Assembly: GCA_028716725.1 (NCBI GenBank)
Contig: JAQUPG010000004.1
Location: forward strand, 2,680 to 66,679
From: Patescibacteria group bacterium
GTDB lineage: Bacteria; Patescibacteriota; Patescibacteriia; Patescibacteriales; JAQTRU01
Length of the DNA stretch: 64,000 nt
Direction of reading: 5' to 3'
In this document: positions 3,058-23,188 of the stretch, piece after piece
Layout: every line of letters begins with the position of its first letter
How positions within the stretch are numbered: the stretch's first letter is position 1
The notes under the pieces: generated by a model
Told to the model about the DNA's origin: nothing
Databases searched by the model: none
The model's input: only the letters and a program-made list of their open reading frames with translations
Translations under genes and position numbers: made by a program

Positions 3058-3135
3058 AATGTTTTAATATATTTTAATACTATTTGTCCCGCCAGAAATT
3101 TGGCTCCTACAGGATAGATTTCTAACGGGGTTCAT
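3021..3135. repeat. Convergent pair of the ATTTCTAACGGGGT motif bracketing the start codon of 2578..3057
   Basis: TCACCCCGTTAGAAAT at 3021-3036 lies inside codons 8-12 (ISNGV). ATTTCTAACGGGGTTCAT lies at 3118-3135. The start codon is at 3057. Confidence 0.85.
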
Positions 3136-3210
3136 AATCTCTAAAAAATCCCAAGATCCAATACGCAAATTCCAAACAATAATCAATAACTAAATTCTAA
3201 TAACCAAATT

Positions 3211-3266
3211 TTGGTTATTGATTATTAAAATTTATTTGGTTATTGGTTCTTGATTATTGATTATTA
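3211..3266. repeat. AT-rich degenerate heptamer-phased tract (NTTNTTG units)
   Basis: ttggtta ttgatta ttaaaat ttatttg gttattg gttcttg attattg attatta, just downstream of the permease stop codon. Confidence 0.6.
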
Positions 3267-3271
3267 ATAAA

Positions 3272-4498
3272 TTATTCATATCTAAGAGCATCAATCGGAT
3301 TTAACTTGGCGGCCCGGCGGGCCGGATAATAGCCAAAAATTATGCCAATCGCCGCGGAAACGCCGACTGCCAAGAGAACAGAATTTAAGGTAACAGTTGT
3401 GGTGGTACCACTGAATTTAGTAATAAGGAGAGAGGCAACCCAGCCTAAAATAATCCCAAAAATTCCGCCAATAAAAGTCAGAGCGGCTGATTCCCCTAAA
3501 AATTGCAGGCTGATATCCCGGCTTTTCGCCCCCAAGGATTTGCGCAAACCGATTTCCCTCGTCCGCTCGGTCACGGTCGTAAGCATCATGTTCATAATTC
3601 CGATGCCGCCGACCAAAAGGGAAATTCCGGCAATCGCGCCCAGAAGCAGAGTTAAAGTACCCGTAACCGAAGACATGGTATTTAAAATATCCGCCTGATT
3701 CATGATGCTAAAATCGGCCTGAGCCGCATCCGCGATTTTATGCCTCGTCAAAAGCAGACTGGTAATCTGCTCCTGGGCAGTAGCCATTGCATCTTCTTCC
3801 GCAATTTGAATATTAACAGTGTTGACAGACTTGCTGCCGGTTATATAACGCTGGGCCGTGGAAAGCGGGATATAGATTAAATCATCTGAACTGCCCATAG
3901 CAGAACCGCCTTTGCTGGCGGTTACGCCGATAATGGTAAATTCCAAACCTTCAATGCGAATTTTCCCTCCCACGGGATCAGAATTTTCTCCGAATAAATC
4001 ATCTCTGGTCGTGGGACCGAGCACCGCTACCCTGGAAACTTTATCAACTTGAGTTGTGTTTATAAAATTACCCGATCCGATTTCAACATTTTTTACGTCA
4101 GCATAAGCTTCAGTAACGCCGTAAATACTGGTATTGGTATTAGTGCCCTTAGTAGTCTTGACTTGTTTTCTGGATGAAACTGACGGCGCTATTTTTTCAA
4201 CGTCATCGATTTGCTCTTCGATTGCTTCGGCGTCTTCAAGGGTTAAAGTGCTGGCCGATCCCATGCCTCCTTTCACTACCGAACCGACATTCCTTTGGGA
4301 GCCGGGCATAACTACTAACAAGTTTGAACCTAAAGACTCAATGTTAGTTTGGATATTGAGAGCCGCGCCCTGGCCGATGGAAATCATGGCGATGACCGAC
4401 CCGATGCCGATAACAATGCCCAAAACAGTCAGAAAAGACCTCGGCTTGTTGGCCGACAGGGCGAAATAAGTCTCTTGAAATAAATCCGAAATTAGCAT
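3272..4498 (-). CDS. ABC transporter permease, MacB/FtsX family
   Basis: 408 aa. N-terminal TM helix, a large periplasmic domain, then a C-terminal FtsX-type 3-TM bundle (TERTREIGLRKSLGA..). Adjacent to its ATPase. Confidence 0.85.
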   Translation of the reverse strand: MLISDLFQETYFALSANKPRSFLTVLGIVIGIGSVIAMISIGQGAALNIQTNIESLGSNLLVVMPGSQRNVGSVVKGGMGSASTLTLEDAEAIEEQIDDVEKIAPSVSSRKQVKTTKGTNTNTSIYGVTEAYADVKNVEIGSGNFINTTQVDKVSRVAVLGPTTRDDLFGENSDPVGGKIRIEGLEFTIIGVTASKGGSAMGSSDDLIYIPLSTAQRYITGSKSVNTVNIQIAEEDAMATAQEQITSLLLTRHKIADAAQADFSIMNQADILNTMSSVTGTLTLLLGAIAGISLLVGGIGIMNMMLTTVTERTREIGLRKSLGAKSRDISLQFLGESAALTFIGGIFGIILGWVASLLITKFSGTTTTVTLNSVLLAVGVSAAIGIIFGYYPARRAAKLNPIDALRYE

Positions 4499-5338: not shown

Positions 5339-7210
5339 TTACCTCATCATCATCATCATTCCTCCTCCGGGCCCTCCGGAATTCTTATCCGTACTGCTTG
5401 AATTATTGCTTGAACTGCCACTTACAGTTTGGGTTACAACTTCTTCGCCCTCTTCCAAACCGCTGATAATCTCCGTCATAGTATCATTACTTGAACCGAT
5501 GGTTACAGTCTTACTCTGCGGCTGGCCGTTGACTAAAACTTGCACATAGTTCGTCTCGCCCCGGGTTTTAACAGCGCCAATCGGCACCAATAAAACATCC
5601 TGCTTGGAATCAACTATTATGTTTACGCTTGTGCTCATACCCGGCTTTACCCTCTCATCCTGTACATCAAAGGCAACTTTGACGTTATAGCTCACTACGC
5701 CCTGACTCACCGTCCCAATAGCGTCGATTTCAGCCACTTCACCGGTAATGGATAAATCGAAAACAGCGTCAAATTCCAAAGTCGCTTTTTGCCCGGGTTT
5801 CACTTGAGCCGCGTCAACTTCGTTCAAAGTAATTTCAGCTATTTTTTGGTTAGTAATTAACGTAACAACAGCGCTGCCGCTTGAAGCGCTATCCCCTTTG
5901 GCAACACTTACTTCCGCCACCACTCCGGCAAAAGGAGCCCGGATAAAGCAATCGGCGTAATTCTGCTGGGCCTGCGTCAAAGAATTTTGTTTTTGCTGGA
6001 CCGCCAGCTGCTTATTCTTTATTTCCAGTTCGGTTGCCCCGGCTTTTAAATTAGCCAGGCTCTCTTCTTTTTCCTTAACGCTTCTTTCGGACGCCGCCAA
6101 ATCTAAGGGGTTGTTGACCCCCATATCCTGTAAATCTTTTTCGGCCTGGGAAATATCCCCCTCATAATTCTTTATAGATTGCTCGCTGGAGTTTAAGCTG
6201 GAAAGATAATTATTTACAGATGAAGTATAAGAACCTAAATTAGTCTGGTAAGTTGAGACTTTGCTGTAGGCGGAAAAACCCTTATCCGTCTGGTAATTTT
6301 CTAAATAATCCAATATATTTTTCTCAGCTTTAACCGTATCCGCCACTTCTTTCGCCGTCTCTATGGTGGCGCTCAAAAGACTTTCTATCACACTCGCCCC
6401 CGAATAACGGCTGGCGCTCTTGTAATCTTCAAGGCTGTTGTCATAATCGCTCTTGGCCTCATTATAATAACTCTGGGCTTTTTCCACATAACTTTGCATT
6501 TTTAACCTTTCATCCTCATCTCGGCCAAGAAAAGAATTTATAAAGACAGAATAATTTGAGGCCGGAGAAATGGTTATTTCGCTATCCGCTACTTCATTGC
6601 TGTAAAGAACTGCGTAAATCCCGGACATAACATTCGGCAAACCCAGAAAGGTACTGGCGATATTATTGTAGGCGTCTTCATAGGCGCTCGCTAAATTGTC
6701 CTGCGCATCCTGCTTATTTTTCAAAGTTGTCTGACGATTATTTTCCTGGGTAATTTTTAATTTTGCCAAAGAATCCCGGGTGCTGGTCAGAGAATTTTCC
6801 GCCTGCATCAAGGTTAAGGCATCGGGGGGAGCCAGAAGATCCTGCAAATCCAATTTGGCGTTTTCCAGATTCGCCCTGGCTTCATTTACGGCCTGGGCCG
6901 CATCGCGGCTGTCTATTTGGGCAATCAGATCGCCTTCCTTTACTTTCTGCCCCTTTATGACATTAACAGAAACGATATCGCCCGAGACTTTCGGCTTAAG
7001 GTCGACCTGATTTAAGGCCGAAACTTGGCCAGTGCCGGAAACGGAAGAAATCAACATCCCCTTTTCCACGGCCGAGGTCGTATAACTTACCACCTCCTCC
7101 TGTTTCGTAATTTCTTTATAACTAAAATAACCGCTGACAATAACTGCCAAAAGGATTATAGCAGCTATAACTTTGTGATTAATCACTAATTTTATTATTT
7201 TTAAAAACAT
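5339..7210 (-). CDS. efflux periplasmic adaptor subunit (HlyD/MacA family) with very long coiled coil
   Basis: 623 aa. N-terminal TM helix, a lipoyl-like segment (GDIVSVNVIKGQKVKEGDLIAQID), a long helical hairpin and C-terminal beta-barrel motifs. Tail is GGPGGGMMMMMR. Confidence 0.8.
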   Translation of the reverse strand: MFLKIIKLVINHKVIAAIILLAVIVSGYFSYKEITKQEEVVSYTTSAVEKGMLISSVSGTGQVSALNQVDLKPKVSGDIVSVNVIKGQKVKEGDLIAQIDSRDAAQAVNEARANLENAKLDLQDLLAPPDALTLMQAENSLTSTRDSLAKLKITQENNRQTTLKNKQDAQDNLASAYEDAYNNIASTFLGLPNVMSGIYAVLYSNEVADSEITISPASNYSVFINSFLGRDEDERLKMQSYVEKAQSYYNEAKSDYDNSLEDYKSASRYSGASVIESLLSATIETAKEVADTVKAEKNILDYLENYQTDKGFSAYSKVSTYQTNLGSYTSSVNNYLSSLNSSEQSIKNYEGDISQAEKDLQDMGVNNPLDLAASERSVKEKEESLANLKAGATELEIKNKQLAVQQKQNSLTQAQQNYADCFIRAPFAGVVAEVSVAKGDSASSGSAVVTLITNQKIAEITLNEVDAAQVKPGQKATLEFDAVFDLSITGEVAEIDAIGTVSQGVVSYNVKVAFDVQDERVKPGMSTSVNIIVDSKQDVLLVPIGAVKTRGETNYVQVLVNGQPQSKTVTIGSSNDTMTEIISGLEEGEEVVTQTVSGSSSNNSSSTDKNSGGPGGGMMMMMR

Positions 7211-15931: not shown

Positions 15932-16219
15932 GTCTACAAAAGTAAAAATTGGATATAGTTATTAGACCCTATCCTTTGGATAATAAATGTATATCTACGG
16001 AAGTAGAAATTGGATATAATTATTAGGCTTAAAAGCCAACTAATAATTAAATTATAATCTACAAAAGTAGAAATTGGACACAGTTATTAGACTTCAATCA
16101 GAAGCCTGCCTAAAGGCTCTATCTACAAAAGTAGAAATTGGATATAGTTATTAGACTCTCCAAAGCTAAGAAACTTTATAATAATCTACAAAAGTAGAAA
16201 TTGGATATAGTTATTAGAC
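15932..16219 (-). CRISPR. Type V-A-like CRISPR array: 5 repeats of 36 nt, 4 spacers of 25-28 nt
   Basis: Repeats at 16184-16219, 16121-16156, 16057-16092, 15993-16028 and 15932-15967. Minus-strand consensus is GTCTAATAACTATATCCAATTTCTACTTTTGTAGAT. The two cas-proximal copies are identical and the distal ones carry 2, 4 and 2 substitutions. Confidence 0.92.
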
Positions 16220-16372: not shown

Positions 16373-19300
16373 TTACTCATTTTTTAAAGAACACTTGGAA
16401 TGCAATTCTGCTAAGCTTTTTTTAGCAATATTATATGAAGCGACCTTATCAGAGTTATCCAATGCGATTAAATCATTCCTAGTTTTGTCCTCTTTAGTGC
16501 CAAAATTGCAATTATTATTTTTACATTTATAGGCATGGGCATTCCATTTCTGCGATTTATCGGAATTTTCTGTTCCACAACGCGGACATTTGTTGCTTGT
16601 TCCGCATGTTTCAATATAAAATATCGCTCCAATCTGATTTATCTCCTTAAAATTTTGCAAGCTCATAACTTGCTTCAAGCCGGGCGGGACAAGGGAAAGC
16701 GTTTGAAATTTTTGCAATAATTTAAATTCAATTATACTGCCCAAATAACCAGAAAATTCACTAATTCGTTGATTCTTGTTAGCCATATCTAAATTCTCAA
16801 AAGCCACTATGCCAAAATATTTTTGCTGCAAATAATTTATAACCCCGACAGCGTTAGCGCACAAGGCATTTTTTAGATGGTTGATTTTTTCTATCGAAAT
16901 TATTTCAGCATTACCGCTCTTGTTTTTAATTCCGTCGTAATAATCCTGCAATTCTTTTTGAATGGCGTCCAAAGATAAAATATTATCAAACCGATCATCG
17001 TAACAATATAAATCATCATTTTCTAGTTTCCCGCGGTTTTCAATATTTAAAAATAAACTTCCTTTATCCGCATTATAACAAATTTTATCTGATCTGAATT
17101 TATTTTTAGCTACACCTTCCCAGATTTTTCTCAAAGCGCTTACTCGTTTTGACTCCAAATAAGTAGCTATATCTCCATTTAAAATTATTTTTCCTTTCAC
17201 TATTTTAGCGCAAGATAAATCAATACACGATTTTGCTGAAATCCTTTCAATGATTCCAATGTTGTTCAGAAACTGATCAATGCTTTTATAAGCGACCCTG
17301 TTTCCACTATCTTTTGCTAAATATTTTTCTTTCTTAAGCTGATATATTTCCAGATCAATAAATTCCGGCTTGTTATATTCTCCCGGCGTTCCGTCTTGTT
17401 TAATAAATTTTATCTTTTCATTTTCTGAAAATTTAAATAAGCCGAGAGTTAAAAGCTCATCCTTTCCCCTGTCTAATCCATAATAATAAATATCAAATGG
17501 TTTTATTTTTTTGTTAAACTCGTCATTATATTCCTCAATATATTTTTTAATATCATCGGTCGTTTTGTATGATAAGTCGGTATTTTTTCCGTGAGCATTC
17601 AAAGTTATCGTAGTTGAAAGCATAAATTGTTCGTTTAACCGTCTATTTTTTTTCAATTTACCCAAATCCCTATCTTTTAATTCGTCGGGGTGTTTTTCAA
17701 CAAAATTTATTTTAAATTCTGGATTCAAACGAACTTCGTAATTCTTTTCCTCATTTCCGTCTGTCCAAAAATCAAGCCAAATTTTTGTATGAAATTCAGG
17801 GTGGCTTCTGCCAAGATGATTTTTATTTTGTAAAGACGCCAAAATTTCTGCGTCATCTTTTTCCAAATCATAACTGGTTATTTTATACAAATTTCCTTGA
17901 TAATCATTAATAATTTTCTTTTTTGTATCTTCAGAAATAGCTATTGATTTTTTGTAATAACAAGTTTTTTTAAATAATCTCTCAAAGTCAGCCAATTCTC
18001 CATATTCTTTAATCGCAAGCTCATCAAAATTTTTAAAATTATCAATCGCCAGCATTTCCTTGGTTGAGCTTAAACTTAATACCGTCTGGTAAAACTTTAA
18101 CATCTCTTTCCCGTCTTCTGAAAATTGATCTTTTCTTTTTAAATCACCATTTATAAAAAAAGAATTATCATTTTGCAGAAGTTCATTTTTAATTGCCGGC
18201 ATAAAAGTATTTTTATCCGATCCAAAGCAAAGCTTGTCCAATGCACGCAAAGTAAACGATTCGAAAGCGTACAAATTCCATTGCCCGCCATTCTCGTTTT
18301 GCAAATCGTCAATATATTTTTTGGCATTTTGAAGATTATTTTTTGCGTCTCTTGAAATGGTTAAAACATATTTTTGGTTGTCTTTTTCCAAAATCACCGC
18401 CCAAGATTGTAATTTCTCAGCATCATTTTTTTCTCTTTCTAAAGATCTAATATCCGCTTTTATTCTACCAGATTCTTTAGCAACTTTTTCATATAATAAT
18501 AAAAAATTATATAAATTTGGAAAATTTTTTTTGGCAAACTGGAAATATTTACCCCTTTTTGATCCATCGGTTTCCTTCTTAAACTTATTAAAATTCTCTT
18601 CGCTAATATCCTTCAGCAATGCTAACTCCGGATTACTCTTTAAATCTTTATAGGTTTTATTTTGATGAACAAATTCATAGAATTTGGACTTTGAATCAGC
18701 CTTAAATTTCTTCATCGCCTCTTTCAACTTATCTATAGGCAAATTTATATCCGTAAATCCGGTTCGCTTAAATAAATTCTTATCATCTTGACTAAATGAA
18801 TAATTTAATTTTAATTTATCTTTATTATTTTGTATTTCTTGTGGATAATCTTTCGGTTTTTTATTAACGATATAATAATTTAAACTTGCACGTTCAATTT
18901 CAACTCCCAACGACTGGCTTGGCAGGACCGCTTTTTCCAATAATGCAAGCAATAGCTTACATTCGTCCAATTCTTTTTTTGCAACATCAATTTTTTCATT
19001 GCTATTTTTATAGTCAATATTTCCATTGAATAACTCAAAAATGAATTCAAAATTACTTCGCTTGGTTATTTTTCTAATCCAATATGCAAACTCGGAAATT
19101 CTTTTTTGGTTTTCTTCCGGCTGATTTAAACATATTTTTAAATTAGCAATACATTCTTTATTTTCTTCAAGCCAATTTTCAAAATAATCATTTAAAAATT
19201 TTATATTGGTATTATCAATAGCAATTTTGTTACCTCGTTTTTTATTGTCCTGAATAATTTTTTCCTTCACATCAAAAAAGTCATTTTTGGTGTAATTCCT

Positions 19301-19594
19301 CAGCCAAGAATGCTTAACGGAGATATTTTTACTTAATTTTTTCTCTTCAGAATCTCTGAGCGCGGCATAAATTAATTCCCTAAAAATTTGTATGGCATGG
19401 CCATATTTATTTATAAAATTATCTATTCGCTTTCTCAAATCATCATTATTGACTATCGGCTGATAAGGCCTCTTAATTTCCTTGGGTTCAAGAATAAACC
19501 GAATCGTCTTTCTTAATTCATAAAAGTTTTGATAATCTTTCATTTTTTTATCTTGAACATTATTAATATTATTTAGCTTTAAATTATTATTCAT
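16373..19594 (-). CDS. cas12: Cas12a-like type V effector, compact variant with C-terminal zinc ribbon
   Basis: 1073 aa. Cas12a-like landmarks: FYELRKTIRFILEP, LYKITSYDL, FMLSTTITLN. RuvC-I is GLD708RG, RuvC-II is AFE933NLD, RuvC-III is D1049KVASYNIAKK. Zinc ribbon CPRC(1003-1006)..CKNNNC(1024-1029). AAGGAA RBS at 19599-19604. Lies next to an array with the Cas12a handle. Confidence 0.9.
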   Translation of the reverse strand: MNNNLKLNNINNVQDKKMKDYQNFYELRKTIRFILEPKEIKRPYQPIVNNDDLRKRIDNFINKYGHAIQIFRELIYAALRDSEEKKLSKNISVKHSWLRNYTKNDFFDVKEKIIQDNKKRGNKIAIDNTNIKFLNDYFENWLEENKECIANLKICLNQPEENQKRISEFAYWIRKITKRSNFEFIFELFNGNIDYKNSNEKIDVAKKELDECKLLLALLEKAVLPSQSLGVEIERASLNYYIVNKKPKDYPQEIQNNKDKLKLNYSFSQDDKNLFKRTGFTDINLPIDKLKEAMKKFKADSKSKFYEFVHQNKTYKDLKSNPELALLKDISEENFNKFKKETDGSKRGKYFQFAKKNFPNLYNFLLLYEKVAKESGRIKADIRSLEREKNDAEKLQSWAVILEKDNQKYVLTISRDAKNNLQNAKKYIDDLQNENGGQWNLYAFESFTLRALDKLCFGSDKNTFMPAIKNELLQNDNSFFINGDLKRKDQFSEDGKEMLKFYQTVLSLSSTKEMLAIDNFKNFDELAIKEYGELADFERLFKKTCYYKKSIAISEDTKKKIINDYQGNLYKITSYDLEKDDAEILASLQNKNHLGRSHPEFHTKIWLDFWTDGNEEKNYEVRLNPEFKINFVEKHPDELKDRDLGKLKKNRRLNEQFMLSTTITLNAHGKNTDLSYKTTDDIKKYIEEYNDEFNKKIKPFDIYYYGLDRGKDELLTLGLFKFSENEKIKFIKQDGTPGEYNKPEFIDLEIYQLKKEKYLAKDSGNRVAYKSIDQFLNNIGIIERISAKSCIDLSCAKIVKGKIILNGDIATYLESKRVSALRKIWEGVAKNKFRSDKICYNADKGSLFLNIENRGKLENDDLYCYDDRFDNILSLDAIQKELQDYYDGIKNKSGNAEIISIEKINHLKNALCANAVGVINYLQQKYFGIVAFENLDMANKNQRISEFSGYLGSIIEFKLLQKFQTLSLVPPGLKQVMSLQNFKEINQIGAIFYIETCGTSNKCPRCGTENSDKSQKWNAHAYKCKNNNCNFGTKEDKTRNDLIALDNSDKVASYNIAKKSLAELHSKCSLKNE

Positions 19595-20754: not shown

Positions 20755-20785
20755 CAAAAAAATCGCCGAAAAGGCGATTTTTTTG
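20755..20785. terminator. hairpin terminator AATCGCC/GGCGATT flanked by A and T runs
   Basis: 7-bp stem with a GAAAA loop, A-run on one side and T-run on the other. It follows the tRNA 3' fragment on the minus strand. Confidence 0.55.
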
Positions 20786-20788
20786 ACC

Positions 20789-20880
20789 TTGCTCCCGGGG
20801 TCGGATTCGAAGACTCCTCGGTGCCTTCCTCGGAGCCGAAACGGGAAACGGGGCTCGATTCAAATCCATACCCACAAAAG
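20789..20880 (-). other. duplicated tRNA 3' fragment (T-loop plus acceptor 3' strand) preceded by a GC-rich insert
   Basis: The minus strand ends ...GAGTCTTCGAATCCGACCCCGGGAGCA. The last 22 nt are identical to the 3' end of the tRNA at 20918-20939, but no matching T-stem 5' strand is present. Confidence 0.55.
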
Positions 20881-20881
20881 C

Positions 20882-20916
20882 AAAAAAAATCAGTCCGAAT
20901 TCGACTGATTTTTTTT
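20882..20916 (-). terminator. rho-independent terminator after the tRNA
   Basis: AATCAGTC / GACTGATT stem extended by flanking A and T runs, immediately 3' of the tRNA discriminator base. Confidence 0.7.
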
Positions 20917-20955
20917 GCTCCCGGGGTCGGATTCGAACCGACGACCAATTGGTTA

Positions 20956-21575
20956 CACTTATCCTCTAGTTTCCTAAAGGGGTGGACTATATCATCCCCC
21001 CACTACAATGTAGTGGGGAGCGAGGCGCTTCCGTCCCGCATTCAGCGGGAAGTACTCTCTTTCCTTATTCGCATAAAGCTATAAAGGATACAATCGAGAT
21101 AGTCTCTACACCTGCCTTGGCTAAAGCTACGGCAAGGCAATGCCTTCCCATAAACCTTAACAAAGGATTGGCTCGGGATTACCCATTTTTTAAATTAGGG
21201 CTTCCCCGAATTCACCTCGTTTTTCAACCATGATTGCTCATGGAAGCTGCGTTATGCCGTCATGCACTTCTCTGCGGCAATTAGAACAAAGCAAAATGCA
21301 TTTATCCAGTTCATCTTTCACCTGTCCCCAGCTCCTGGTATAACCTTTAGCGGAAATACCAAAATCTTTTTTATTGGAATCAAGATGGTGAAATTCTAAA
21401 GCGTTAATGCTTCGCTCGTAGCCACAAATTGCACATTTACCGCCCTTATACTCAATAGCCATCTTTCTAATCGCCTTTCTTCTTCTGTCCACGGCTTTTT
21501 TTAAGTATTCGGCACGGTCGGCGTATTTTCTTTTATCTTTTGCCATAACTCTATTATAGCAAAGATTTTGTGTCC
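20956..21575 (-). mobile_element. group I intron carrying an HNH homing-endonuclease ORF
   Basis: The 5' exon ends in U and the intron ends in G. GCAGC at 21246-21250 can form P1 with GCUGU. There is an R-like element at 21096-21112 (GGTGTAGAGACTATCTC) and an S-like element at 20984-20996 (GATGATATAGTCC), giving a P7 of GACUA/UAGUC. Confidence 0.7.
21238..21546 (-). CDS. HNH endonuclease (intron-encoded)
   Basis: 102 aa: CAICGYERSINALEFHHLDSNKKDF...CILLCSNCRREVH, i.e. CxxC..HH..N..CxxC..H. It lies wholly inside the intron. Confidence 0.8.
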   Translation of the reverse strand: MAKDKRKYADRAEYLKKAVDRRRKAIRKMAIEYKGGKCAICGYERSINALEFHHLDSNKKDFGISAKGYTRSWGQVKDELDKCILLCSNCRREVHDGITQLP

Positions 21576-21654
21576 ACAGCCAACTGCGCTACCGCTGCGC
21601 TACCCGGGAATGTATTCAATTTTCTAATTTACTAATTTTCGAATTTTCAAATTT

Positions 21655-21718
21655 CTTTCCGAATAGCTACCGCTGCTTGCCTCGCCGAAACGAAGTGAAG
21701 GCGGGCGCTACCCGGGAA
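21655..21718 (-). other. duplicated tRNA 5' fragment with a 30-nt GC-rich insertion in the D-loop position
   Basis: The minus strand reads TCCCGGGTAGCGC[ccgccttcacttcgtttcggcgaggcaagc]AGCGGTAGC, then diverges. Its upstream flank ATTGAATA is also duplicated relative to the real tRNA. Confidence 0.55.
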
Positions 21719-21808
21719 AATATTCAATTTTCAATTAATCAATTACGAATTATCAATTAAAAAAAAGATTTCATCTTATTATAATAAATACTCTGGAAAT
21801 GTCAAACC

Positions 21809-21844: not shown

Positions 21845-23188
21845 TTAAAAGTCGCGTAGTTTTTGCAAACCATCATGCTTTCTTATGCGCTCCAAAGCTT
21901 TAGCTTCAATCTGCCTGATGCGCTCGCGGGTAACTTCAAATTCCTGCCCGACCTCTTCTAAGGTATGGGCCACGCCGTCAATCAAGCCAAAGCGCATTTC
22001 CAGGATTTTTTGTTCGCGCGGAGATAAAGTCGCCACCACTTCCTTAACGTAATCTTTAAGAAGCTGCAAGGCGGCGGCCCGGTCCGGGGTAACATTTTTT
22101 ACGTCCTCGATAAAATCTTCCAGGGTTGAATCTTCCTCGTCTTCGCCCACGGTCGTTTCCAAAGAAATCGTATCCTGCGATATTTTTATGATATGCCTTA
22201 CTTTATCAATATCTTCCCCCATTTCCGAAGCGATTTCCTCCGGCATGGGCTCGCGCCCCAAGTCCTGGATTAAACGCCGCTCCACCTGCGTAAACTTATT
22301 GATAGTTTCCACCATATGGACGGGGATGCGGATGGTGCGCGACTGGTCGGCCAAAGCCCGGGTAATCGCCTGCCTTATCCACCAGGTGGCGTAAGTGGAA
22401 AACTTATAACCCTTGCGGTACTCAAATTTTTCTACCGCCCGGAACAAGCCGATATTGCCTTCCTGAATCAAATCCAGCAAGCTCAGGCCCTTGGCCCCGA
22501 CAAATTTTTTCGCTATGGACACTACCAGGCGAAGGTTGGCCTCGATTATTTTCTTCTCCGCTTCCTTATCCCCCTTTTCTTTTCTTTTAGCCAGCTCAAC
22601 TTCCTCTTCGCCGCTAAGCAAGGGCACCCGGCCGATTTCTTTTAAATACATCTGGATAGAATCGGAATTCAATTTTAATAAATCAACGTTTTTGGCGTCG
22701 GCCAAAGCCTTTTTTGAGGACGATTTTTTCCCCTCTGTTTTCTCCCCTTTTTTATCCTCAAAATCCAAAATTTTCCCCGTATCTTCAAATATCTGCACGC
22801 CGCTTTCCTGCAGCCGGCTTAAAAAAACTTCATAGTCAAAAATGTATTCTTCCACTTCCGGGAACAAATGCAATAATTCCGTTTCTGTGACAAAACCGCG
22901 CATTTTCCCTTTCCTGATTAAATTTCCCATCCCTTCTTCCGTCGGCTTTTCTGCCTTTACCGGCTCGGCTTTTCTGCCCTTAAAAATTTTCCCCCGGCGT
23001 TTTTCCGCGCCTTTTTTTCTTACCAGTCCCCCTTTTCTTTTTTTAAAAACTGCCCGGCCTTTTTTGCCGGCCTTCTTTTTCGGTTTTCCGATTTTAGCTG
23101 TCTTTCTTATTTTCTTCTTTCTCGCTGCTTTCTTTTTATTTTTCACCTGCCCCGCCCTAGCGGTGGTTTTTCTCCTTTTATTTGCCAT
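21845..23188 (-). CDS. rpoD: RNA polymerase primary sigma factor RpoD with Lys-rich N-terminal extension
   Basis: 447 aa. Regions 2-4 are clear: [67 protein letters not shown]. Confidence 0.92.

Follow-up and report, generated by a model that had tools for sequence, protein, structure and literature searches.

Analysis of a 64-kb window, that is, the whole stretch of 64,000 nucleotides taken from contig JAQUPG010000004.1 of the Patescibacteria group bacterium assembly GCA_028716725.1, points to a tRNA-Asn(GUU) gene of the Patescibacteria (candidate phyla radiation, CPR) that is interrupted between anticodon positions 35 and 36 by a mobile, self-splicing group I intron carrying an HNH endonuclease gene. 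We put the probability of this reading, which was built up from sequence comparison, at roughly 0.9. The split gene occupies 21609-20918, and all of the tRNA and intron features described below lie on the minus strand of the window (Table 1).

The two exons join into a 72-nt cloverleaf that ARAGORN recognises as tRNA-Asn(GUU). The host tRNA, the exon and intron coordinates and the cloverleaf formed on joining, all proposed in a preliminary description made from the sequence alone, hold on the minus strand. In its default mode ARAGORN found zero tRNAs in the window, and no tRNA family reached the Rfam gathering threshold there; the intron mode of ARAGORN recovered the split gene at 20917-21609. 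Uninterrupted tRNA genes identical to the Asn spliced product at 72 of 72 positions are present on the metagenome contigs L108, L157, and L190. Among the 81 HNH-bearing loci examined (L001-L081), 78 have the ORF within a split tRNA whose junctions take the form ...CUGU/intron...G/UAA....

That the 620-nt insert is a group I intron, as first proposed from the letters alone, is borne out by the covariance model RF00028, which matches over its whole length (model positions 1-253) with 81.8 bits against a gathering score of 50 (E 2.9e-19). This match is far beyond chance, and RF00028 is the sole Rfam family at gathering score in the window. The R-like GUAGAGACUA and S-like GAUAUAGUCC elements, which had been proposed to form P7, fall on the two P7 strands of the model. 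In the same alignment, a 65-nt insertion lies between P7 and the 3′ strand of P3, exactly where P7.1/P7.2 of subgroup IA would lie. The core was also compared with the tRNA-Asn intron of GCA_016700035.1 (Table S3 of PMC13011429), with 170 of 215 positions (79%) aligned and the same order of elements. Self-splicing of that intron at 35/36 has been demonstrated in vitro, and its spliced product was sequenced (Nakagawa et al., mSystems 2026; PMC13011429). The window intron is therefore the same ribozyme as this validated intron, with an open reading frame (ORF) inserted in its P1 loop.

The U at the 5′ splice site, the terminal G and the GCAGC guide noted in the preliminary description are all present. 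The guide is kept at the same place in about 70 of 78 homologues and sits immediately 5′ of a perfect P2 hairpin, and the base that follows GCAG remains C in the homologues whether nucleotide 31 is G, A or C. The first stem drawn by Rfam, AUGCAUUUU...GAAGUGCAU, which lies within the ORF, is probably not P1, as the validated intron has its guide directly before P2.

The intron contains an ORF of 102 codons whose end, T-Q-L-P-stop, overlaps the guide sequence and P2. Its motifs follow the order CxxC...HH...CxxC, with C38/C41, C87/C90, H53-H54, and D81 present, and a precomputed PF01844 match exists for many homologues, including several at 85-92% identity. NCBIfam gave no match to the ORF. The 102-aa frame is as first described; the HNH call itself is weaker than stated, PF01844 remaining below its cut-off in this copy. 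Immediately upstream of the ORF lies TGCTATAAT, which resembles an extended -10 box. The pattern TGnTAnn[A/C]T occurs in 34 of 75 homologous leaders, compared with a mean of 3.6 and a maximum of 9 in shuffles, and the homologous boxes mostly end 6-9 nt before the start codon. These data suggest that the box may be an intron-internal promoter giving rise to a leaderless or nearly leaderless HNH mRNA.

Several observations weigh against the interpretation as a self-splicing intron with a functional endonuclease. No P10 pairing emerged on inspection when the UAACC of the 3′ exon was compared with the bases that precede the guide. Covariation in P1 was looked for in the homologues and none was found; since the exon CUGU never varies, it is impossible here, and the guide is in addition constrained by the ORF. 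Pfam PF01844 scores 20.3 bits with the ORF, just below the cut-off of 21.4, and a PDB profile search gave weak, marginal HNH matches only, the best being McrA with an E-value of 0.064. Moreover, the ORF has Arg at position 91 (codon CGC, 21274-21276(-)), changing NCHREVH to NCRREVH, where 40 of 41 aligned homologues and the 10 closest homologues have His. In the alignments to McrA and to the Pfam model, position 91 falls on the His of their 'CH' and is presumably the third His of the HNH motif, a metal ligand of the beta-beta-alpha-metal nucleases. With this H91R change, the full motif (His, Asn/Asp, and His with two CxxC pairs) is incomplete in the window ORF, and the enzyme of this copy may be inactive, weakened or impaired; H91R may also be an early sign of endonuclease decay. 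A sequencing error is unlikely because an identical HNH protein is found on a second assembly (GCA_028713775.1, contig JAQTNQ010000056.1).

The identity of the host tRNA depends on where the intron is cut out. If both splice sites are slid by 2 nt, so that the intron sits at 33/34, the cloverleaf is equally good and the anticodon becomes UGU, an alternative that the preliminary description had itself raised. U precedes the intron and G ends it under either choice, and ARAGORN in its intron mode favours Thr(UGU) for the window gene and most homologues alike. Nevertheless, the guide pairing, the homologue junctions, the intron-less genes and the published in vitro splicing settle the assignment as Asn; a tRNA-Thr host is highly improbable, and the Thr(UGU) call is a known artefact of ARAGORN. 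The Thr junction would place U33 opposite an A of the conserved guide, whereas U35 alone gives the U-G wobble, and it is impossible in homologues whose intron starts with A or ends in AUG, CUG, UUG or GCG. The intron-less genes on L108, L157, and L190 correspond in full to the Asn product. The pair U1-A72 and G73 of the window tRNA likewise suit bacterial tRNA-Asn and not Thr, judged by the tRNAs of E. coli. The same Thr(UGU) miscall has been documented for a homologous intron and was settled by sequencing of the spliced product (PMC13011429).

Given the Arg at position 91 and a locus littered with tRNA fragments, one might ask whether the element is a decaying relic, either an intron that has lost splicing or a pseudogene, with tRNA-Asn coming from another source. 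This is very unlikely, as intron-less genes of functional appearance contain exactly these exon sequences, the score of the ribozyme core is no lower than in its relatives, the gene stands between a perfect promoter and a terminator, and the ORF is intact with an identical protein on two assemblies; in addition, coexistence with an intron-less copy of the same anticodon in one genome is reportedly rare (PMC13011429). An intact ORF that has lost a predicted metal ligand could also mean that the protein has a role other than homing, from the outset or by later change, either assisting splicing as a maturase or binding DNA as a domesticated protein, and the overlap of the ORF with the guide and P2 couples protein and ribozyme physically. 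We consider this unlikely, though less so than a relic, since close relatives retain the full motif, an ORF-less relative splices free of protein, and the free-standing phage members beside tRNA-Asn (see below) fit a DNA-targeting role.

A mobile, self-splicing intron would most likely operate as follows. The precursor would be transcribed from the consensus promoter at 21805-21778, and the exon end GCUGU would pair with the guide GCAGC to form P1 with its wobble at U35. An external guanosine would attack after U35, and the terminal G (20956) would then enter the same site, leading to exon ligation and a 72-nt tRNA to which CCA would be added afterwards. The HNH gene in the P1 loop would probably be expressed from its own TGnTATAAT box, and enzymes of this family would recognise tRNA-Asn genes and cut intron-less alleles, repair then copying the intron in (homing). 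It is from sequence that we infer the splicing of this copy, the activity and target of its endonuclease and the use of the internal promoter.

Comparison of related loci supports mobility. The intron-less locus L190 and the intron-bearing locus L024 share 91% identity over 1.7 kb downstream, and the intron-less L108 is syntenic with L006 on both sides; close relatives thus differ in whether a given locus carries the intron. In the protein collection, more than 1500 proteins belong to the HNH family, and relatives occur in at least 568 GTDB species representatives, a few of which are labelled as other phyla (labels as given); the closest relatives are labelled Falkowbacteria or Patescibacteria. 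As a separate observation, L002, L044, L046, L047, and L056 suggest that assemblies break at the locus, through strain heterogeneity or repeats.

More than 540 relatives of the HNH protein, with 46-65% identity, were found in IMG/VR. The phage relatives are free-standing genes located in phage tRNA arrays. In 53 of 80 loci, a tRNA-Asn(GUU) gene is found no more than 400 nt from the phage HNH gene, and the nearest upstream tRNA is Asn in 31 of the 80, though each array carries many isotypes; in some arrays, tRNA-Asn is found on both sides of the HNH gene. RF00028 matched 2 of the 20 phage loci scanned, L203, in which the ORF is inside the intron, and L230. Two IMG/VR loci, L230 (613-1149) and L245 (1501-2258), carry a phage tRNA-Asn with an ORF-less insert at 35/36, of 206 and 194 nt, respectively, and a free-standing HNH relative directly upstream of this tRNA. 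The L230 insert scores 67 bits with RF00028 and is a clear group I intron, and the L245 insert is under the gathering threshold; in L230, the stop of the HNH ORF overlaps the tRNA start. This layout resembles the 'collaborative homing' of a free-standing endonuclease and an ORF-less intron that Zeng, Bonocora and Shub reportedly described in 2009 for cyanophage psbA. Taken together, these data suggest that the enzyme recognises tRNA-Asn DNA; the strongest evidence so far is that, in two different settings, its family is tied to this one gene.

The tRNA-Asn gene of the window is flanked by partial copies of itself. Upstream lies fragment A, which corresponds to the direct repeats D2 and D8 and is predicted to fold as a closed hairpin (z = -2.6). 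A homologous fragment is present in L023, similar 5′ copies are present in L035, L046, and L056, and an A-like fragment also lies upstream of the intron-less tRNA gene of L108. The possibility that the hairpin of fragment A is a dispersed repeat was rejected, as it has a single copy in the window and, among 201 loci, is found only in L001 and L023. Downstream lies element B, which opens with the 3′ half of the tRNA in imperfect, inverted form (20880-20854), continues with variable hairpins and closes with 23 nt (20811-20789) that repeat the tRNA 3′ end exactly and in direct orientation. A long hairpin is predicted for element B, yet it folds no better than shuffles (z = -0.6), so that modelling gives no thermodynamic support for a functional RNA.

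Such fragments recur in related loci. A downstream copy of the last 9 nt of the tRNA was found in 12 of 63 loci, where about 0.1 would be expected by chance, and an upstream copy of the first 9 nt in 5 of 78. The 5′ copies are always upstream and the 3′ copies always downstream, all of them at most 225 nt away. Fragments were found in 1 of 87 and 1 of 81 intron-less tRNA-Asn loci, which are mostly non-CPR and form a weak control that is not phylogenetically matched; the association between fragments and introns is therefore only suggestive. A search with Rfam at E-value threshold found no family for the flanking fragments of the window and 11 related loci. In a test for G-U-preserving changes, the substitutions of the inverted copies comprised 8 C>T and 4 G>A, few counts from noisy alignments.

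The fragments are probably, with modest confidence, scars of repeated imprecise replacement of gene ends by selfish elements that target tRNA-Asn; inverted copies would, with the same modest confidence, come from fold-back at the terminator palindrome. It is less likely that the fragments are functional RNA hairpins competing with the tRNA 3′ half. The scar interpretation is preferred because fragment interiors vary between lineages, L025 has a decaying copy, several direct copies contain a CCA that is absent from the tRNA gene itself, some phage HNH genes are flanked by tRNA-Asn, no Rfam family was found and element B folds poorly. Two further loci argue in the same direction. In L063, the first downstream scar is a tRNA 3′ end, ...GUCCUGCUCCCGGAGCC, from a tRNA-Asn allele other than the resident gene, and the second forms a perfect hairpin from the acceptor end of the resident gene. 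In L082 (reverse strand, ~6095-6491), tRNA-Asn nucleotides 1-22 are followed by a GC-rich segment, an 82-aa GIY-YIG ORF and an intact intron-less tRNA-Asn gene, and the structured GC-rich segment, GGCGGACCAGCCUAUGGCUGGGGCUGU, is also found upstream of the tRNA gene in L108; in L082, then, a different type of selfish element has inserted at the tRNA-Asn gene.

Two observations on downstream elements are recorded in their own right. The two scars of L063 lie in succession at 3066-3300. The downstream elements of L053, L054, L059, and L075 share a 9-bp hairpin with a CUGC tetraloop, placed between an acceptor-like strand and an inverted T-arm copy, and its stems covary (GCCAA/UUGGC, GUGCC/GGCAC, GCAAA/UUUGC).

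A broader interpretation, which we offer tentatively and hold at somewhat less than even odds, is that this HNH lineage is specialised on tRNA-Asn and exists in several stages of association with the intron, that phages carry the element between hosts and that the flanking copies are footprints of replacement. The stages would be a free-standing gene by an intron-less phage tRNA-Asn, a free-standing gene by an ORF-less 35/36 intron (L230 and L245) and a gene within the P1 loop (CPR). The footprints would arise from imprecise, endonuclease-provoked gene replacement, for example through fold-back repair at the terminator hairpin.

The tRNA gene comes after dnaG and rpoD, a synteny common to its relatives. 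A consensus sigma-70 promoter lies downstream of rpoD (21845-23188) and upstream of every tRNA-related piece, and is predicted to be the promoter of the tRNA transcription unit. A 29-nt, AT-rich inverted repeat (21735-21763/21820-21848; 93% complementary) brackets this promoter; it may be an operator or may have arisen by chance in AT-rich DNA. Two terminator-like hairpins with U runs lie 3′ of the tRNA gene; the first was missed in a consensus scan because its stem is AT-rich. Elsewhere in the window, a compact Cas12a of 1073 aa is encoded at 16373-19594(-) in a 30%-GC island (PADLOC Cas12a, 636 bits), a protein for which Pfam and NCBIfam gave no match, and it is adjoined by a short clustered regularly interspaced short palindromic repeats (CRISPR) array at 15933-16219 whose repeat contains TCTACAAAAGTAGAAAT.

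Table 1. Features of the split tRNA-Asn locus, with positions in the 64-kb window.
Feature	Position	Strand	Basis or remark
Consensus sigma-70 promoter, TTGACA-16 nt-TATAAT	21778..21805	-	12/12 hexamer matches
Upstream pseudo-5′-exon (fragment A)	21655..21717	-	tRNA nt 1-13, 28-nt GC-rich hairpin, nt 12-22, diverged tail
tRNA-Asn 5′ exon	21576..21609	-	34 nt, UCCCGGGUAGCGCAGCGGUAGCGCAGUUGGCUGU; nt 1-35, 3′ end ...GGCUGU; ARAGORN
Group I intron, 620 nt	20956..21575	-	inserted at anticodon-loop 35/36
TGCTATAAT, extended -10-like box (TGnTATAAT)	21553..21561	-	ends 6 nt upstream of the ORF ATG
Putative HNH endonuclease ORF, 102 codons + stop	21238..21546	-	lies in the P1 loop
Ribozyme core	20963..21305	-	RF00028 alignment
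Internal guide sequence GCAGC (P1)	21246..21250	-	pairs with exon GCUGU; U35 opposite G is a wobble
P2 hairpin, CCAUGA-GCAA-UCAUGG	21228..21243	-	read from the sequence; aligns with P2 of the validated intron
P3 5′ strand	21220-21213	-	RF00028 alignment
P4-P5	21210-21172	-	RF00028 alignment
P6	from 21171	-	RF00028 alignment
P7 5′ strand	within 21111-21100	-	RF00028 alignment
65-nt insert at the P7.1/P7.2 position	21099-21035	-	RF00028 alignment
P3 3′ strand	21028-21020	-	RF00028 alignment
P8	21018-20998	-	RF00028 alignment
P7 3′ strand	20993-20984	-	RF00028 alignment
P9	20980-20963	-	RF00028 alignment
Terminal (omega) G	20956	-	G then UAA in 78/78 homologues
tRNA-Asn 3′ exon	20918..20955	-	38 nt, UAACCAAUUGGUCGUCGGUUCGAAUCCGACCCCGGGAG; nt 36-73; CCA not encoded
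Terminator-like hairpin 1	20881..20917	-	15-bp stem, A/U-run flanks; -17.1 kcal/mol, z = -6.4
Downstream pseudo-3′-exon (element B)	20787..20880	-	repeat D3; after the first terminator, before the second
Terminator-like hairpin 2	20755..20785	-	-15.8 kcal/mol, z = -5.5

For genome annotation, this case illustrates how tRNA-Asn comes to be listed as 'missing', or replaced by a spurious tRNA-Thr(UGU), when standard tools are run on CPR genomes, miscalls that affect estimates of genome completeness. The endonuclease-bearing form is far more widespread than a survey of complete genomes had suggested, and the phage relatives offer a natural series in which to study how a free-standing homing endonuclease becomes the passenger of an intron. 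The flanking pseudo-exons may record the repair of invasions with only about 35 nt of homology per exon.

The class of intron to which the element belongs is known. tRNA-Asn introns at 35/36 were catalogued as 'Asn.4Ug' by Williams (2020; 10.1101/2020.01.27.920355, as cited in PMC13011429), and Nakagawa et al. (mSystems 2026; 2025 preprint; PMC13011429) found 15 of them in 95 complete Patescibacteria genomes, 4 of the 15 with HNH genes (PF01844). The view in the preliminary description that an Asn host with a mobile HNH gene would be unusual is thus contradicted by these surveys. In the same work, 25 of 28 introns at position 35/36 were assigned to subgroup IA, copies with and without an intron rarely coexisted in one genome when they shared an anticodon, and endonuclease-bearing tRNA introns were judged rare and their transfer limited, on the basis of complete genomes only (PMC13011429). 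The suggestion in the preliminary description that splicing would be essential if this were the only tRNA-Asn agrees with such rare coexistence. The published paper makes no mention of flanking tRNA fragments, an internal -10 box or phage relatives, and a text search of it for duplications and pseudogenes gave no hit (PMC13011429). The window element has the same host tRNA, insertion site, U before the intron, terminal G, GCAGC followed by P2 and order of core elements as the published class. Of the features tested for the Patescibacteria tRNA-Asn 35/36 family, it lacks two, both of the nuclease: the Pfam score falls short by 1 bit and His91 is replaced by Arg. The validated intron of GCA_016700035.1 has no ORF, with GCAGCC 5 nt past its 5′ splice site, whereas in the window a 309-nt ORF fills the P1 loop.

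Parallels also exist in more distant systems. Organelle genomes contain partial duplications of the ends of host genes beside invading endonuclease genes. The window shows a similar pattern, with direct copies of the tRNA 5′ end upstream of the functional gene and of its 3′ end downstream, and in L082 a 5′ pseudo-exon precedes a GIY-YIG ORF and an intact tRNA-Asn gene; however, the copies in the window measure no more than 13-23 nt, occur together with hairpins and imperfect inverted copies and have no endonuclease gene between them, and a causal link is a candidate explanation. Phage intron HNH enzymes of the I-HmuI type are, like the putative product of the window ORF, small beta-beta-alpha-metal nucleases encoded in group I introns, but I-HmuI is not known to have the two CxxC zinc knuckles of the window ORF, and no sequence relationship to this type was detectable (McrA being the only hit of the PDB search, E 0.064). 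In bacteria, the tRNA-fMet intron of Synechocystis encodes I-Ssp6803I, an enzyme of the PD-(D/E)XK type. It is likewise a group I intron in the anticodon loop of a bacterial tRNA with its own endonuclease aimed at the tRNA gene; it differs from the window intron in its tRNA, its site (33/34), its intron subgroup and its nuclease fold. PF11645 cases corresponding to I-Ssp6803I are listed in PMC13011429. In phage T4, SegB is a free-standing homing endonuclease encoded in a tRNA gene cluster (PMC2330249), and the phage HNH relatives are likewise placed among tRNA genes, in most cases next to tRNA-Asn. SegB belongs to the GIY-YIG enzymes; the window HNH gene lies inside the intron, and cleavage by its family is predicted. 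In summary, the finding is correct and already known, the window element being a typical member of a family published between 2020 and 2026, and the additions of the present analysis are incremental, testable refinements of that family rather than a new kind of system.

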